Part shown: positions 5,024 to 14,659 of the stretch, in pieces | How positions within the stretch are numbered: the first letter of the stretch is position 1 | How the letters are laid out: every line of letters begins with the position of its first letter | IMG/VR virus record: IMGVR_UViG_2698536651_000007 | Source of the DNA: a virus | Taxonomy: Duplodnaviria > Heunggongvirae > Uroviricota > Caudoviricetes | Length of the DNA stretch: 18,266 bases | Direction: 5' to 3' (one strand) | Notes under the pieces: model-generated | Database searches by the model: none | Seen by the model: only the letters and a program-made list of their open reading frames with translations | What the model was told of the DNA's origin: nothing | Position numbers and translations under genes: made by a program

Positions 5024-5305
5024 TGAGATTGTGGTGCTTTTTGTGGGAGTCATCCACTTACGCACTTTGTTTTGCCATGCCAGCAGTTAGCTTCTGCTGT
5101 AAAACTATTCATGCAGCAAACCTGCACTTCACCACAATGGTTAGCATACTTTTCCTGATTAAGATTTTGCCAAATATGCTAGCCATTGTTTCATGTATTG
5201 GACCTCCTTACTTTTTATTAAAGAGATCCAATATTCACTACTCTGTCCGTATCTCTACTCAGGCATCAGCCTTCTTCGTTATCGTATACAGACGAGCGAT
5301 GAATT

Positions 5306-5521
5306 TTAATCAGTAATGATGACATTTGCTGCTGCAGGACCTTTAGCACCACTCTCTATAGAGAAGGTAACCTTTTGACCTTCAAATAAGGTTCGATAAT
5401 TATCATTCTGAATCGCAGAAAAATGCACAAACACATCTTTACTACCATCAACAGGAGAAATAAAGCCGAAACCTTTATCAGCGTTAAACCATTTTACTAA
5501 ACCAGTCATTTTATTTGACAT
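5306..5521 (-). CDS. cspB: Cold-shock protein CspB-like (71 aa)
   Basis: [71 protein letters not shown]. Confidence 0.9.
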
Positions 5522-5821
5522 TCTACATTCCTTAACTTGAGCCTTTCGGCATAAATGGTTTGCATAACAGAAACGACTTCGTACTTAATTGGAGAGACTC
5601 AAAGAAGGAATAAGTGAATAACACCTGAAATGAGAACTGCTTTAGTAAACTACTTCGTATATCGTCTGTTCTTCAAACCGACGCAATCATTAACGCATAG
5701 TTGAACATATGAAGCAATGTTTATTTTAGACATCCAGCCATCTTCAACCCCATCAAAAAACTATAGCTTTCTTCAGGAACGTGTGTATAGTGCGCCAAGT
5801 TATCAGTATTAAGGAATTTTT

Positions 5822-9085: not shown

Positions 9086-9241
9086 TTACTCCTCAGGTTC
9101 GTAAGCTGTGAAGACAGCGACCTCCGTCTGGCCGGTTCGGATTCGTACCTCGCAGAGGTCTTTCCTCGTTACCAGTGCCGTCACTATGACGGTTAAACAG
9201 ATGACGATCAGGGCGATTAACATCGCCTTTTGCTGCTTCAT
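9086..9241 (-). CDS. hokD: Hok-family membrane toxin HokD/RelF (51 aa)
   Basis: Reverse-complement translation MKQQKAMLIALIVICLTVIVTALVTRKDLCEVRIRTGQTEVAVFTAYEPEE. Not in the ORF track (under 60 aa); the + strand ORF 9108-9329 is its antisense. Confidence 0.9.
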   Translation of the reverse strand: MKQQKAMLIALIVICLTVIVTALVTRKDLCEVRIRTGQTEVAVFTAYEPEE

Positions 9242-9312
9242 AGCCTGCTTCTCCTGTCAACGCAAAGCAGAAGTGTCACCTTCGGTGCGAAACAGAGATG
9301 TCATGCTTTGGT

Positions 9313-9600
9313 TCAGAGAATGCGTTTGACCGCCTCGCTATATACTTCCGAGCGTTCTCTTTTCCCAACAGAAATCACGAAAACGACAACTTTCTCGTCT
9401 ATAACCTGGTATACAAGGCGATAGCCTGAAGACCGGAGCTTAATCTTGTAACAATCAGGCATACCACGGAGCTTGTTTGCTTCAATCCGGGGTGACTCAA
9501 GTACTTCAACCAGCTTCTTTTTCAACTGTTCACGTACCGTCGAGCCCAGCTTTCGCCATTCCTTTAGTGCCCGCTCGTCAAAATCCAGAAAATACGCCAT
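9313..9600 (-). CDS. relE: RelE mRNA interferase toxin (95 aa)
   Basis: MAYFLDFDERALKEWRKLGSTVREQLKKKLVEVLESPRIEANKLRGMPDCYKIKLRSSGYRLVYQVIDEKVVVFVISVGKRERSEVYSEAVKRIL. Confidence 0.9.
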   Translation of the reverse strand: MAYFLDFDERALKEWRKLGSTVREQLKKKLVEVLESPRIEANKLRGMPDCYKIKLRSSGYRLVYQVIDEKVVVFVISVGKRERSEVYSEAVKRIL

Positions 9601-9839
9601 CAGAGTTCATCCAGCGTCACACGTACTGGCTTAGGATTACGAAGCCGTTCTTTCACTATCTCCACAAGTTCAGCATCTTCATCACTCAGGAGTGTCTGTT
9701 TGAACGGCAAGCGTTCATTGTCAGCGATATACTCGAGCATGAGACGAAGCGCTTCAGAAGGAGTTACACCCATTTTTTCAAGCGCGGCGTAAGAACGCGC
9801 TTTAAGTTCATCGTCAATACGCAGGTTAATGCTACCCAT
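9600..9839 (-). CDS. relB: RelB antitoxin (79 aa, RHH); 1-nt overlap with relE
   Basis: MGSINLRIDDELKARSYAALEKMGVTPSEALRLMLEYIADNERLPFKQTLLSDEDAELVEIVKERLRNPKPVRVTLDEL. Confidence 0.9.
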   Translation of the reverse strand: MGSINLRIDDELKARSYAALEKMGVTPSEALRLMLEYIADNERLPFKQTLLSDEDAELVEIVKERLRNPKPVRVTLDEL

Positions 9840-9852
9840 GTCTTACACCTCT

Positions 9853-9877
9853 TGTAATTACAAATGTCATTACAAGT
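9853..9877 (-). promoter_or_regulatory. relBE promoter/operator (relO) with palindrome ttgtaattacaa and a repeated attacaa motif
   Basis: Palindromic TTGTAA/TTACAA element directly upstream of the relB start, consistent with the known RelB2-RelE operator architecture. Confidence 0.5.
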
Positions 9878-10010
9878 ATCGCACTACAACATGCTTAGGG
9901 CAAGTCACGAAGGAAGTCAGAAAGTAGTCGTAAGAACGGTGATCACTGTCCGCTTTGTGCCAATAGCGGACATTGCTGGCTCATGGTATGTTAGTTTAAG
10001 GAGGCAGGTT

Positions 10011-11033
10011 ATGCCCTGTATTTCGCTGTGGTATAATAGTTGCGCAATTGATACAAGGGAGCGTTACATCGTGAAAATTGTTTTCGAGGTTAATGGAAAG
10101 AAAGTTCCACTAAAATCTTTAAAATACATAAGCAAAAAAGATCAACTCGAAGTAATGAAAAACTGGTTCTTTGAAAACTTTGAAGATCCGGCAAATGCTT
10201 GTCCGTATGAAAGTAGAGAAGGTGGCTATGCTTACATATATGGCGGGCCGTATGATGCGAGCGAAGAACTACAATCCATCTTCGGTCAATATGTTAAATC
10301 TGAGTATATTGAGGAATTAGTAGATGAATTACAAACACAATGTTTTGACTGGTCTGGAAACTCAAATAATATAGATGATTGGTACGATGATGATATCTAC
10401 GACGCTGTAACGTCTTCCGGTAATCCGTATTTAAAATTCATTGATAATATCGATAAAATAAAAAAACTTGCAAAAGATAAAACTGAACAACAGCAAAAAA
10501 ACCACTTGCTTAGTTTGCTCTACACGAATGTTATTACAGCTTTGGAAACGCTTTATGTTGAGCTATTCATTAATTCTATAGAGAAAGATGATGTCTACAT
10601 AGCCAATTGTATAGAAAAAGGTAAGACTGAATTTAAAGTAAGCAAAGATATTGCTGCGTTGCCTTTCAAGGGTGAACCCATCGAGAAAATTAGGGGAGAG
10701 CTAATCAGGTCAATCAAGGAACACTTGATCAGTGCAAGCTGGCATAGCACTAAAAAGGTAATCGACCGCTATGAAGCTACATTCGATATAAAAGTACAAA
10801 AAGACTGTCCGATAGAAGCTATTGAATTGGCAACCCTCAATCGAAATCACTTAGTGCATCGTGGTGGAAAGGATAAAGAAGGGAACCTCGTAGTGATTAC
10901 AGACCAGGATCTTGAAACGCTGATTGAAAATGCATCGAACCTGGCAATTATGCTCTACAACAGTTTAAATGTAGCAACGAATAAAACCACCATTTTGCAA
11001 CCAGATGACAAACCGTTCATTCATGAATTTTAA
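10011..11033 (+). CDS. Hypothetical protein A of the AT-rich two-gene cassette (340 aa from ATG 10011; 320 aa if GTG 10071 is used); HEPN-like RNxxxH motif near the C-terminus
   Basis: ATG 10011 has AAGGAGG at 6-nt spacing; the alternative GTG 10071 has AAGGGAG and the candidate promoter upstream. Motif NRNHLVHRGG at 10839-10868. Visibly AT-rich relative to flanks. No homolog recognised. Confidence 0.7.
   Translation: MPCISLWYNSCAIDTRERYIVKIVFEVNGKKVPLKSLKYISKKDQLEVMKNWFFENFEDPANACPYESREGGYAYIYGGPYDASEELQSIFGQYVKSEYIEELVDELQTQCFDWSGNSNNIDDWYDDDIYDAVTSSGNPYLKFIDNIDKIKKLAKDKTEQQQKNHLLSLLYTNVITALETLYVELFINSIEKDDVYIANCIEKGKTEFKVSKDIAALPFKGEPIEKIRGELIRSIKEHLISASWHSTKKVIDRYEATFDIKVQKDCPIEAIELATLNRNHLVHRGGKDKEGNLVVITDQDLETLIENASNLAIMLYNSLNVATNKTTILQPDDKPFIHEF
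10029..10037 (+). promoter_or_regulatory. Candidate extended -10 element TGgTATAAT for the downstream AT-rich cassette
   Basis: tgGTATAATag at 10029-10039. It would place a transcription start about 10 nt upstream of the AAGGGAG SD that precedes the GTG at 10071. Confidence 0.35.
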
Positions 11034-11048
11034 TAGCGCAGGTCATAC

Positions 11049-12050
11049 ATGGATATTCGCACACGAAAGACAAAATTTTTAGAGTCGTTAGATTCAACTG
11101 AAGTGATACGCAAAGCAGTAAGTCTCGCTATAGATTGCATTATTGATAATCATAATAGTAATGAAGATACCCCCTTAGTTATTACCAGCTATGATGATCT
11201 CTGTAGAATCCAGGTGCTAAATTATGTACAGGAGTTTTGCGAAGCTGCATTCCCTGATATGGATGAATATTACTTTAGTCCTAACATACTTCGCATCAAC
11301 GGCAAGACTAGTGAAGAAGCTTGTATTAACTTAATTAAACTCTTAAGAAGTACAAAAGGCATGCTATTCTGGTCCGATGCCCCATCGTGGTTCGCTAGCC
11401 TCCCCGACGGATTATTCCATGTTGTTAACATTGATCAAAAAATCGTTACTCGCGGCCTTAATAAGAAAAACTCTAAGCCGACAATAATCAATAAAGATTA
11501 CAGTGTAGATACACTACTATCAGAGCTATTTTTGAATGGCGCACACATGGAGCAACCCAACGTACACAACGTTTCTGAGGGAAACATGAAGTTCTATGAT
11601 GAATGCCATGCTGGATTAATCAGACCAATACCCGCTCCAATAGGCGCGTCATACGATGAAGAGATCACAATTAATTCTCCAGATTGGCAAAAGCTCGCGT
11701 GTGTAGCTTTACGCCGCTATCAGTCGAAGGAATGTCATGACGGAATGCAATGGGATACAACCGATCATGGTTGGACTGATGTAATCGCGTATCCATTCGT
11801 CGAAGAAATACAATCAATGGATAATAGTGGTTATCGACAATGTTTAGTTGGGCTGGTCACAATAAACAATTCAAATGCAAATTCTCCGTACCTATCTACC
11901 GTTTGGATACATCCATTTTATCGCAGGAGAGGGTTATTAAGTAAGTTATGGCCAAAATTACAAGAGTTATATGGAAGTAACTTCGAAATTGAGCGACCTA
12001 ATGAAAATATGAAAGCATTTCTGAAAAGTGCGAAACACGCAGATTACTAA
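11049..12050 (+). CDS. Hypothetical protein B of the cassette (333 aa); possible GNAT-like segment near the C-terminus
   Basis: ATG 15 nt after the stop of A, so probably an operon. …STVWIHPFYRRRGLLSKLWPKL… resembles GNAT motif A (tentative). AT-rich. No homolog recognised. Confidence 0.7.
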   Translation: MDIRTRKTKFLESLDSTEVIRKAVSLAIDCIIDNHNSNEDTPLVITSYDDLCRIQVLNYVQEFCEAAFPDMDEYYFSPNILRINGKTSEEACINLIKLLRSTKGMLFWSDAPSWFASLPDGLFHVVNIDQKIVTRGLNKKNSKPTIINKDYSVDTLLSELFLNGAHMEQPNVHNVSEGNMKFYDECHAGLIRPIPAPIGASYDEEITINSPDWQKLACVALRRYQSKECHDGMQWDTTDHGWTDVIAYPFVEEIQSMDNSGYRQCLVGLVTINNSNANSPYLSTVWIHPFYRRRGLLSKLWPKLQELYGSNFEIERPNENMKAFLKSAKHADY

Positions 12051-12329
12051 TTTATGAATCAGTCTGTGGAGTTAGGGTTGGTGTGAACAAGTAGGGTAAG
12101 AGCCTCAACGTGATGCTATGCCGACCTGCTCCCTGAGAATTCACACAGAAGGCTGCTAGCAATGTCTGCAGATCGCTCTTAGCGGACATTAGCATAGGCT
12201 ATTTACCATAACGCCTCATTACGCGCACCGCCCAGACTGACTCAGCGCGTTTCTGGCATATCCCCGGTAAAACAAGTAACAAACCACCCGAAAATGAACA
12301 CCAGAAACGCGACTTAAGAATCTACCCTA

Positions 12330-13720
12330 TGAATGGATATGCACTCAACCGAATCGATCTTGGTTTCAATCTTTTTTATCGGGATCAGGCTTCTTTTTAG
12401 GTAACTTCGGGGGCTTAACTTGCTGATGACTTTGCGTTCGGCGCGTAAGCCAGGGATGGTCAGCTTTAGGTTTAACATAGTATTTTGAGCGTAAATCAAT
12501 ACGGGCATTATCCACTCGTTCATGGACACTCTTTTCATCATCCAGTGGTATAGGCTCCGGGCCATCAACATACTTTTCCCAGCCCAGCGCTTTCCCGTCA
12601 TACAGAACGTTAATTTCACCGTCAAAGTTCTCGCATACAGTAACAACCGAATGCCTAAGTCGATATCCCCGGCCCTCACTGCGTACCTGAAACGCACTGC
12701 TTTTGTACTGGAAAGTGAGATTTTTAGACAGAACGCGCTTCGCCTGTAGGCTGAAGATATAACCCAGTTCCTCTTCAGAATGGTGCACATCAAGATGAGC
12801 ATTATCAGTAGTACGAGGCGACGTAGCGAACCGGTTGTTATAGGCTTCAATAAAGGTCGGCAACCATGCATTTGCTGTTTCAATATCACTGATATTCTGA
12901 AGCCGCATTTCTTTGACCAGCCTGTCCTGTAGTGTCTGATTGGCGCGCTCTACCCGCCCTTTTGCCTGCGGGCTGTTGGCATGGATTGGCTCGATGCCCA
13001 GTGTCTTTATCGCACGAGTGAACTGGGTCAGCTCACCTTCCCGCTCTGGGTTATTTACCCTGAATATACTGTGTCTATCAGAGTAGAGAGCGAGCGGTAC
13101 GCCATGATCATTAAGGTAACCCCGGAGGGTTTCCATGTAAGCCCGGGTTGTTTCAGCAGGCACAAAACGCAACGCCATCAACGCACTGGTGGCATCATCA
13201 ATGAAAACGATCAGTGTACATCTGGGGCCTCGATTTTCAAACCAGTCATGAGGTGAGCCATCAATCTGGATCAGTTCACCGTAAGATGGTCGTCGCATGC
13301 GGCGTTGATATATACGGGCAATTTTACGACGGCGTTCACGCCATAACCCCTCTTCTATCATCCACTTTCTGAGAGTTTCAACGGATAAAGATAAACCGTG
13401 TATCTCGCGCAATTTTTCGCACGCAAACGTAGGTCCAAAATCAGCGTAACGGCCTTTGAGGAGTGAAATTACTGTTGCTCTGAATTCAGTAGAAAAGGAA
13501 TTATTAGGACGCTTTCCACGTCGGTGGGAAACCAGACCAGAAGGCCCTTCATTTCTATACCGTTGCACCAGACGTTTAACCTGCCGAATAGAAATGCCAA
13601 TGCGTGCCGCAGCTTGTTCCTGAATAATCTGAAGTCGGTGGAGTTCCTTATGACTCATCGTAACAGTCTCTTTGATCATGAAAAATCCCCCAGAGAATTG
13701 TCTGGGGACATTTTAGAATG
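12330..13720 (-). mobile_element. Insertion sequence carrying the DDE transposase; termini not resolved, so coordinates are a minimum approximate extent
   Basis: Transposase gene present; no convincing terminal inverted repeats or target-site duplication could be identified by eye. Confidence 0.35.
12366..13679 (-). CDS. DDE (rve/integrase-core) transposase with N-terminal HTH; IS481/ISNCY-like
   Basis: 437 aa. HTH-like N-terminus (ARIGISIRQVKRLVQRY), DDE candidates (…IQIDGSPHDW…, …IVFIDDATS…, …KGRVERANQTLQ…), basic C-terminal tail. GGGGGA SD before the ATG at 13679. Confidence 0.8.
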   Translation of the reverse strand: MIKETVTMSHKELHRLQIIQEQAAARIGISIRQVKRLVQRYRNEGPSGLVSHRRGKRPNNSFSTEFRATVISLLKGRYADFGPTFACEKLREIHGLSLSVETLRKWMIEEGLWRERRRKIARIYQRRMRRPSYGELIQIDGSPHDWFENRGPRCTLIVFIDDATSALMALRFVPAETTRAYMETLRGYLNDHGVPLALYSDRHSIFRVNNPEREGELTQFTRAIKTLGIEPIHANSPQAKGRVERANQTLQDRLVKEMRLQNISDIETANAWLPTFIEAYNNRFATSPRTTDNAHLDVHHSEEELGYIFSLQAKRVLSKNLTFQYKSSAFQVRSEGRGYRLRHSVVTVCENFDGEINVLYDGKALGWEKYVDGPEPIPLDDEKSVHERVDNARIDLRSKYYVKPKADHPWLTRRTQSHQQVKPPKLPKKKPDPDKKD

Positions 13721-14013
13721 GTTCAAAGGGGACATTACAGCTTGGTGTTAACAATAGCCTGCTTCTCCGTGCCTTTCGGCACGTAAGAGGCTAACCTACA
13801 TGTGTCTAGCATGAAATTGGCCTCAGATTAATGTTAAGCGTCTTGCAGGACGCGTAATGTTAACTGGGGCTTTTCTCTATCTGCCGTTGGTGTCCATGCC
13901 CGAGGCAGATAGCCTCAAGCACCCGCAGTCATTCTACTTAACTAAGATTTCCCCGCAAACCGTTTTTGTCCAGCACAGTAAATATCCAACTAAACCAATG
14001 GAGTTCGCTGTAT

Positions 14014-14193
14014 TTACCGCCAGTATTCAATGCACATGACCGCCATGAACACCCCTAAAAAAAGGGCATTTATATATCCAAATATTAATATCAAAACATC
14101 AACTTTTTCCATATACCTTGCTGTGAAGATGATGGGCATACATGATGCGAACAACCAGAACGCAACAAACAAAAACTGCAATGCGTTTTTCAT
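14014..14193 (-). CDS. Small hydrophobic membrane protein (59 aa, two predicted TM segments)
   Basis: AGGAGG SD 4-5 nt before the ATG at 14193. MKNALQFLFVAFWLFASCMPIIFTARYMEKVDVLILIFGYINALFLGVFMAVMCIEYWR. AT-rich context. Confidence 0.5.
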   Translation of the reverse strand: MKNALQFLFVAFWLFASCMPIIFTARYMEKVDVLILIFGYINALFLGVFMAVMCIEYWR

Positions 14194-14659
14194 TATTCCT
14201 CCTACAATCAATGTGCAATTACATTTAAACACACCTCAATTTGGCCGGACATATAAATATCTAAACCAGAAAAAATCACTTACATAGCGTTACAAACTCT
14301 TTAGTCTAAAGGTTCATCGTAAAACATTCCCCATACTTATCAGTCCGTTCCGCGCCAGGTAGCTCATTGCCTTATCTGGCAACCTGTAATCAGGTTTCCG
14401 CTTTTTCAGTTGGCTGGTCGTTTAACCGACATAGTTAATCCATTAATCTAGTTGCCGGATGTTGGTGGATTTTCGCGTTTTAGTTGTTCATAAAAGTGCA
14501 CAGCTTTAACCAGTTCTTCTGATGTAACTGGGACTGGTGAGGCAGTGAATAAGGCCTGAATTTGATAGTTCGGCCTGTCGTTACAATCCTCTTTTTTCGG
14601 TACATATTTCCAGTCACCAGACCACTACTTCCCCTGAAAGTCCGTATCCGGAGCTTAAG

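Follow-up and report, generated by a model that had tools for sequence, protein, structure and literature searches.

The IS1202 family (ISNCY/IS1202 group) of insertion sequences (IS) is recognized by its transposases, which carry a helix-turn-helix (HTH) at the N terminus, a DDE triad, two extra conserved D located between the first catalytic D and the second and a Q at position E+7 (bioRxiv 10.1101/2022.12.17.520857). One member, ISEsa1, has been assigned to a separate small subgroup (PMC10132070); its ISfinder entry, as quoted there, gives 1,609 bp, inverted repeats (IR) of 15/22, no target site duplication (TSD) and a transposase of 439 aa. Separately, relBE is described as integrated into hokD in a statement in PMC6379469 (citing Ramisetty and Santhosh 2016), which as given there mentions no transposon, and relBEF was reported to be co-transcribed (Gotfredsen and Gerdes 1998, as cited in PMC5120126). 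Here we analyzed the IMG/VR virus record IMGVR_UViG_2698536651_000007, 18,266 nucleotides in length (the window). We are highly confident that a gene at 12366-13679 encodes the transposase of a cargo-carrying IS1202-family (ISEsa1-like) transposon of 4,499 bp which occupies positions 9255-13753 and is inserted in the Shine-Dalgarno/start region of hokD.

The ends were located by applying to the window the junction logic of the IncI1 plasmid CP074821 (L003; L numbers designate comparison loci), in which relBE-ydfV-flxA-transposase sits between pndA and trbA. The features which define the insertion are:

9086-9241, minus strand: hokD coding sequence, 51 aa (coordinates as for the annotated hokD in L001/L002; Pfam HOK_GEF, E=1e-23).
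9240-9254, no strand: left target duplication ATAGCCTGCTTCTCC, 15 bp, covering the hokD Shine-Dalgarno sequence and the first 2 nt of the start codon.
9255-9280, plus strand: IRR, terminal inverted repeat distal to the transposase, TGTCAACGCAAAGCAGAAGTGTCACC, with a TGT terminus.
13728-13753, minus strand: IRL, terminal inverted repeat beside the transposase start, TGTTAACACCAAGCTGTAATGTCCCC, with a TGT terminus.
13754-13768, no strand: right target duplication, 15 bp, the second copy of ATAGCCTGCTTCTCC.
13754-13924, minus strand: orphaned hokD leader with the mok start/sok region (Rfam RF01794 sok, 104 bits, 13753-13924).

IRs in the IS1202 family have about 24-29 bp, are imperfect and start with 5'-TGT, and its TSDs have 5-6, 15-17 or 27-28 bp. 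IRR and IRL are 26 bp long, match at 19 of 26 positions and both begin with TGT. The 15-bp duplication is perfect, and each copy directly abuts one IR: the left junction reads CTTC ATAGCCTGCTTCTCC then TGTCAACGCAAAGCAGAAGTGTCACC (9240-9280), the right one GGGGACATTACAGCTTGGTGTTAACA then ATAGCCTGCTTCTCC GTGCC (13728-13768). The interrupted locus is a Hok/Gef gene with a mok/sok leader, as seen from the HOK_GEF and sok matches. Comparison with prophages lacking the insertion, proposed in an earlier note on this DNA as a way to find what was disrupted, identified the hokD locus, the coding part (9086-9241) and the leader (13754-13924) of which are contiguous in empty-site genomes. When the empty site was reconstructed as hokD coding part, one 15-mer and leader, about 1,069 complete E. 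coli genomes matched it in one uninterrupted piece, at the position of Qin. In L005 the empty-site junction was verified base by base and the 15-mer was present once. From the ends, the duplication and the empty site we therefore conclude that the mobile unit is 9255-13753, flanked by a 15-bp target duplication. The insertion splits hokD from its own mok/sok leader, and hokD is now situated directly downstream of an outward-reading relBE.

The earlier note had taken the gene for that of a separate IS downstream of an unknown cassette and had seen by eye neither terminal inverted repeats nor a duplication. For 12051-13860 this is true; the second end and the left duplication are located about 2.8 kb further left, at 9240-9280. 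A simple IS of about 1.6 kb (12161/12175-13753; ISEsa1 as catalogued), inserted beside a pre-existing cassette, would agree with the conserved transposase module of the related elements, which at approximately 1,606-1,622 bp is close to the 1,609 bp of ISfinder, and with the similarity to K-12-type Qin, which begins at 12175. Yet nothing within 9 mismatches of either IR and no duplication exists near 12051-12365: this region yielded no repeat when 11900-14300 was searched for inverted or direct repeats bounding a 1.6-kb IS, and no extra IR copy (≤9 mismatches) when the whole window was searched. The empty-site genomes lack the whole of 9255-13753, not just 1.6 kb. The far-side IRR is identical or nearly so at the ends of 13 related elements, 12 of which have flanking direct repeats outside, and ISfinder itself lists no TSD for the 1,609-bp definition. 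A simple IS is thus very improbable; the cassette and relBE are inside the same transposon as the transposase. As to the ISfinder family, a related entry is ISEsa1, according to the PGAP name of a +27-bp allele; the catalogued ends do not apply because the element has 4,499 bp and a 15-bp TSD and no IR is found near 12161-12365.

Relatives were collected in a scan of one genome per species, which gave 79 loci. Both IRs were present in 13 elements of Enterobacteriaceae, spanning 2.6-9.1 kb, on plasmids as well as on chromosomes. Perfect repeats flank 12 of them; in eleven cases they measure 13-16 bp, and in that of a nested insertion (L023) 10 bp. L079 lacked flanking repeats. Exact copies of IRL were present in 87 metagenome and 59 viral contig stretches (146 in exact-match scans). 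IRR resembles the right end TGTCAACCC of an IS from Hahella. This relative, 62% identical, is a plain IS of 1,449 bp with 15-16-bp duplications in seven of seven copies; therefore, the cargo-bearing form constitutes a derived clade.

An independent insertion in pndA of IncI1 plasmids has a 16-bp TSD, both junctions being CATCATAGCCCCTCCA, and 761 plasmids contain the empty pndA site in its reconstructed form. This bears on the possibility of a domesticated or decayed transposase gene fixed in Qin, to which relBE and the cassette were added by homologous recombination between hok loci. Most E. coli copies are indeed at the same Qin position, the allele in the window has a 9-aa deletion, a stub alone is left in K-12 and the relBE integration into hokD was described without a transposon (PMC6379469). 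However, locus-specific duplications flank the insertions in IncI1 pndA and at many hok and non-hok sites across genera; therefore transposition is required and homologous recombination does not suffice. Also, full-length alleles of 446 aa are found on plasmids. We consider a domesticated gene to be very unlikely and retain the transposon of 9255-13753. Two features concern its transposase:

12366-13679, minus strand: transposase, 437 aa, intact open reading frame (ORF), N-terminal HTH plus DDE domain.
13682-13712, no strand: palindrome of AAAATCCCC and GGGGACATT (N13 spacer), just upstream of the transposase start; GGGGACATT is the second copy of the inner IR motif.

The 437-aa protein matched NCBIfam NF033594 'ISNCY family transposase' with 456 bits (E=7e-137; cutoff 250). 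With Pfam, HTH_32, HTH_29 and HTH_28 were matched and rve_3 was marginally under the cutoff; the designation 'rve-type' from the earlier note is therefore valid at the superfamily level. The catalytic residues are D140, D201 and E244; they, DD161-162 and Q251 (E+7) were invariant in an alignment of nine proteins, i.e. the protein carries the IS1202-family signature. The inner IR motif GGGGACATT at 13704 and 13728 constitutes a subterminal repeat as known in this family. The palindrome of 13682-13712 falls in the 70-bp stretch that separates IRL from the start codon of the transposase; by analogy to ISAjo2 it is a candidate transposase-binding/autoregulatory site.

The allele in the window has a 27-bp in-frame deletion after 13617 by which nine residues of the HTH region (ESINRHITQ) are gone. 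These are kept in eight of eight aligned relatives, down to 61% identity. The full-length allele (+27 bp) encodes 446 aa; the PGAP name of this protein is 'IS1202-like element ISEsa1 family transposase'. Because nine conserved N-terminal residues are gone, the window copy of the transposase is probably inactive and unable to bind its own ends. The 4,499-bp element would therefore be a resident, at best trans-mobilizable. In complete E. coli genomes the copies of the gene are 100% identical from 12175 rightwards and are annotated as 'ydfW' plus 'ISNCY family transposase'. K-12 'ydfW' corresponds to the last 49 codons of the transposase (window 12366-12515; L002 4175-4324). PGAP carries this name over and flags the rest of the fully open 437-aa ORF as a truncated pseudogene.

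Next we consider the target. Most other matches to the region start at 13754 and represent the hok/sok loci of lambdoid phages, Stx phages among them. Across all loci, 51 distinct IRL flanks were counted. About 36 of these are hok leader/Shine-Dalgarno sequences (TAGCCTCTT...GGCAAGGAG), drawn from an estimated minimum of a dozen hok-family loci and interrupted at the same position. All but one of the hok insertions are oriented with relBE upstream of hok. In L008, L012, L015 and L026 the Rfam sok match ends at most a base or two from IRL, and the ORFs beyond IRR in the relatives are Pfam HOK_GEF proteins. Insertions at non-hok sites likewise carry proper duplications; therefore, the preference for hok is strong and the specificity is not absolute.

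These data can be combined into a mechanism. The DDE transposase would bind the inner IR motif AATGTCCCC, cleave at the TGT/ACA tips and insert the element with a 15-16-bp stagger. A toxin-antitoxin module and a cer-like site would provide maintenance functions for the carrier replicon, and the cargo between two palindromes would be exchanged after insertion.

Several points weigh against a transposon of this extent and target preference. Transposition is supported by comparison, through empty sites and through independent insertions whose TSDs are locus-specific. The match between the IRs is imperfect (19/26), and the duplication lengths in relatives range from 13 to 16 bp. The catalogued ISEsa1 (1,609 bp, no TSD) conflicts with the boundaries found here. 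The transposase in the window carries a deletion, and PGAP flags identical copies as a pseudogene. The hok events are overcounted, since SNP variants of one locus and vertically inherited copies add to their number, and the non-hok sites showed no strong target consensus: a G(G/C)CAA / CAA bias on the 5' side of the duplication was weak.

The interior of the element is modular. The order is IRR, relE-relB, site B, cassette, site A, cer-like Xer site, transposase, second inner-IR copy and IRL:

9313-9600, minus strand: relE, ORF, reading outward across IRR into hokD.
9600-9839, minus strand: relB, ORF, forming a toxin-antitoxin module with relE.
9945-9974, no strand: cargo-junction site B, ACTGTCCGC-tttgtgccaata-GCGGACATT, 30-bp palindrome; the variation in cargo type starts in its spacer.
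9975-12160, plus strand: passenger cassette with two ORFs, standing in place of ydfV-3'/flxA of K-12-type Qin.
End at 11033, plus strand: cassette ORF1, with a mechanical start at 9864 and a PGAP start equivalent to 10071.
11049-12050, plus strand: cassette ORF2.
12161-12190, no strand: cargo-junction site A, AATGTCTGC-agatcgctctta-GCGGACATT, 30-bp palindrome; identity to other elements starts at 12175, in its spacer.
12201-12229, minus strand: cer/psi-like Xer core GGTGCGCGTAA-tgaggcg-TTATGGTAAAT, the arms matching XerC/XerD arms in PMC10132070, Table 8.
12230-12365, minus strand: cer-like accessory region, reaching from the Xer core to the transposase stop codon, with conserved blocks CGTTTCTGG, TTTTCGGGTGGTTTGTT and GAAACGC.

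With relBE, the two-ORF cassette and the cer-like site between the IRs of an element with a single transposase, it has the constitution of a transporter IS or unit transposon. As suspected in the earlier note, the insertion helped to deliver the adjacent cassette, which is cargo between the same IRs and TSDs. The 315 bp between the cassette stop and the transposase stop (12051-12365) contain no ORF of ≥60 aa wholly inside, in agreement with that note. They are neither IS terminal sequence nor the remnant of a disrupted gene, as it had considered, and consist of the 3' tail of the cassette (12051-12160), site A (12161-12190) and the cer-like site with its accessory sequence (12201-12365).

The relBE segment is colinear with and 99.9% identical in nucleotides to L001-L004, which have annotated relE and relB genes. 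In 11 related elements a relBE module of roughly 720 bp was conserved. In two elements from Scandinavium (L025, L039) a TacA/TacT-like pair, an 88-aa antitoxin with a 163-aa GNAT toxin, takes its place in the IRR-proximal ~1.1 kb. Some toxin-antitoxin module at the IRR end seems to be the rule. The cargo between the modules varied; at least ten different cargos were observed, e.g. flxA, a CDF transporter, an ars operon and LysR-regulated transporters or dehydrogenases. This variability, together with IS110- and IS30-family ISs inside the cargo of some relatives, is what might be expected of a composite or accidental assembly in which the IR at 9255 stems from a second, decayed IS and the cargo was trapped between two ISs. 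However, the likeness to an IS end at 9255 is limited to 26-50 bp and no second transposase remnant adjoins it, the relBE module immediately adjoins IRR in every element of the relBE type, and the same architecture recurs at 69-100% backbone identity. Such an assembly is extremely unlikely, and we treat 9255-13753 as a single transposon in what follows.

The cassette in the window is 100% identical on the plasmids CP069974, CP114364 and CP082081; outside this window it was seen on six plasmids of Escherichia, Klebsiella, Citrobacter and Providencia. For the two cassette proteins there was no PADLOC match, sub-threshold matches only in Pfam and nothing in NCBIfam. The first 38 codons of the mechanical 389-aa ORF1 are common to K-12 ydfV. 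ORF1 and ydfV both start in the conserved region divergent from relB and cross site B into the cargo. The PGAP version of ORF1 has 320 aa; a strong AAGGAGG-ATG is located at ~10011. The same two-ORF cassette is present with 91.5% identity on the Providencia rettgeri plasmid AP025671 (L088, 3177-5488), there without a transposase or relBE within 5 kb. Degenerate palindromes flank it; among them, a distance of 12 bp separates an A-like half from a B-like half.

The putative Xer core has the arms GGTGCGCGTAA and TTATGGTAAAT around a 7-bp centre and resembles Col plasmids on its accessory side. In cer and psi sites an 11-bp XerC arm, a centre of 6-8 bp and an 11-bp XerD arm are accompanied, on the XerC side, by accessory sequence of about 150-180 bp. 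Of 15 elements scanned, 14 have one such core each, in the same location; the remaining one, L079, lacks a large part of the transposase module through a deletion. Over 110-150 bp the accessory region shows 73-78% identity to non-coding sequences of numerous small plasmids of the Col type, regions which we presume to be cer by reference to the ColE1 cer sequence. In all, 3,853 plasmid records matched a 206-bp cer-like query. No paper on Xer turned up when the literature was searched for the core sequence.

Every element has two AATGTCCGC-N12-GCGGACATT sites at the cargo borders, some of them split by an IS in the spacer, and none was found elsewhere in 1.38 Mb of fetched DNA. A relaxed scan of 15 elements yielded 37 palindromes (the cargo-border sites and that at the transposase start) compared with 1.2 expected in shuffled sequences. 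The palindrome arms match the inner IR motif AATGTCCCC at eight of nine positions. The palindromes could be internal transposase-binding sites which aid synapsis of distant ends, or they could be operators. IS110- and IS30-family insertions are located within palindrome spacers at 1621-3113 in L009 and at 1607-2822 and 5104-6628 in L011 (element coordinates); therefore, the palindromic sites are themselves IS targets. We had considered that the cargo segments X and Z are cassettes which invert between palindromes; this was rejected since their ORF content is that of the IS110- and IS30-family insertions in the spacers. One-site integration at the palindromes in the manner of attP x attB also fails, as the spacers of sites A and B differ (TAAGAGCGAGAA and TTCTGGCACAAA, respectively) and no empty platform was seen among the elements examined.

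The cassette of the window equals that of plasmid CP069974 at 100% whereas the flanks are of the Qin type. In another Qin-resident copy (L220) a different cargo is present at the same insertion site. Because a Qin-type backbone carries a plasmid-identical cassette and the cargo of L220 differs at the same site, the comparison indicates that the cargo was replaced after insertion. The right crossover lies within 12175-12225, which comprises half of site A, the XerD arm and the Xer central region; the left one is within 9768-9963. The exchange could have been Xer-mediated in combination with homologous recombination, or it could have occurred by recombination at the palindromes or by homologous recombination over short tracts. 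A broader proposal, possible yet rather doubtful, is that ISEsa1-type elements, in place of 1.6-kb ISs lacking TSDs, are 'maintenance transposons', equipped with transposase, cer-like Xer site and toxin-antitoxin module, which home to hok/sok, that their cargo occupies a dedicated slot between two 30-bp palindromes made up of the transposase-binding motif, and that the palindromes, with or without the Xer core, are a previously unrecognized device for cassette exchange or cargo loop-out which accounts for the change of cargo in situ in Qin.

The window as a whole is a Qin-type lambdoid prophage of E. coli. Its genes are arranged in the order lysis genes, cspB/cspF, ydfT/ydfU, rem, hokD with relBE, exonuclease, xis and int. 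Many complete genomes match it with 100% identity, apart from a portion of about 2.2 kb. In a whole-window comparison none of 5,426 complete RefSeq E. coli genomes had the cassette at the Qin hokD site (best coverage 88%). Rfam cspA thermoregulator matches were found on the minus strand at 2395-2780 (113 bits) and 5290-5682 (159 bits). The latter is upstream of cspB, and a cspF-like ORF is nearby on the opposite strand.

The IS family is known; the architecture and the target preference were not found described in the literature searched. There we found no description of element ends, a TSD or a transposase at relBE/hokD, and ISEsa1 appeared in element lists alone. As cargo, the cassette should be treated in future studies as transposon-borne and shared with plasmids. 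From the palindromes and the internal cer-like site, which mark the cargo borders, it could be learned in what way small ISs function as long-cargo derivatives or exchange what they carry.

How does the element compare with the known systems? ISEsa1 (ISNCY/IS1202 group, from Cronobacter sakazakii) is alike in its transposase, a relatedness derived via PGAP naming alone, and in a catalogued size of 1,609 bp which approximates the transposase module of 1,606-1,622 bp. The difference is that here the element has 4.5 kb (2.6-9.1 kb in relatives), a second IR past the cargo and TSDs of 13-16 bp. This suggests that the ISfinder definition (1.6 kb, no TSD) represents the transposase module of a larger element, with its right end presumably inside site A. 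The ISTde1 subgroup of the IS1202 family has imperfect TGT IRs of about 26 bp, 15-17-bp duplications, an HTH and DDE domain, the DD pair and the Q at E+7, a likeness seen in these features; its members are described as simple ISs without a noted target preference.

In the ISAba32/ISAjo2 subgroup and in tISKpn21, tISKpn65 and tISRel10, members of the same family, insertion is also site-specific and oriented, by a maintenance-type site, pdif/xrs. Some have a passenger ORF, and they share an extra subterminal transposase-binding repeat. In contrast, their TSDs have 5-6 bp and they insert 5 bp from Xer sites, whereas here the Xer-like site is internal, the target is the translation start of hok and the cargo is modular with several genes. 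With Xer sites as the first, this would be a second type of oriented target for the IS1202 family, again a sequence typical of plasmids and prophages. Tn7-like elements are similar in the TnsB-like architecture of the transposase (according to the modelling in PMC10132070), in TGT/ACA tips, in several binding sites at the ends, in homing to a conserved site and in variable cargo. They differ in that here a single transposase gene is present, without TnsA/C/D/E, and that the TSD is much longer and the target is another one.

Finally, the same IRR-hokD junction is found in Qin of K-12 MG1655, together with relBE, ydfV, flxA, the cer-like segment and the final 185 bp of the transposase gene; this prophage differs by a deletion from window position 12550 to ydfX/dicC which took most of the transposase and IRL. 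A footprint of this transposition would account for the relBEF arrangement of K-12. A single event would explain both relBE-hokD (relBEF) and the 'rearranged' sok-less hokD of K-12, in which the left end of the element is still present.

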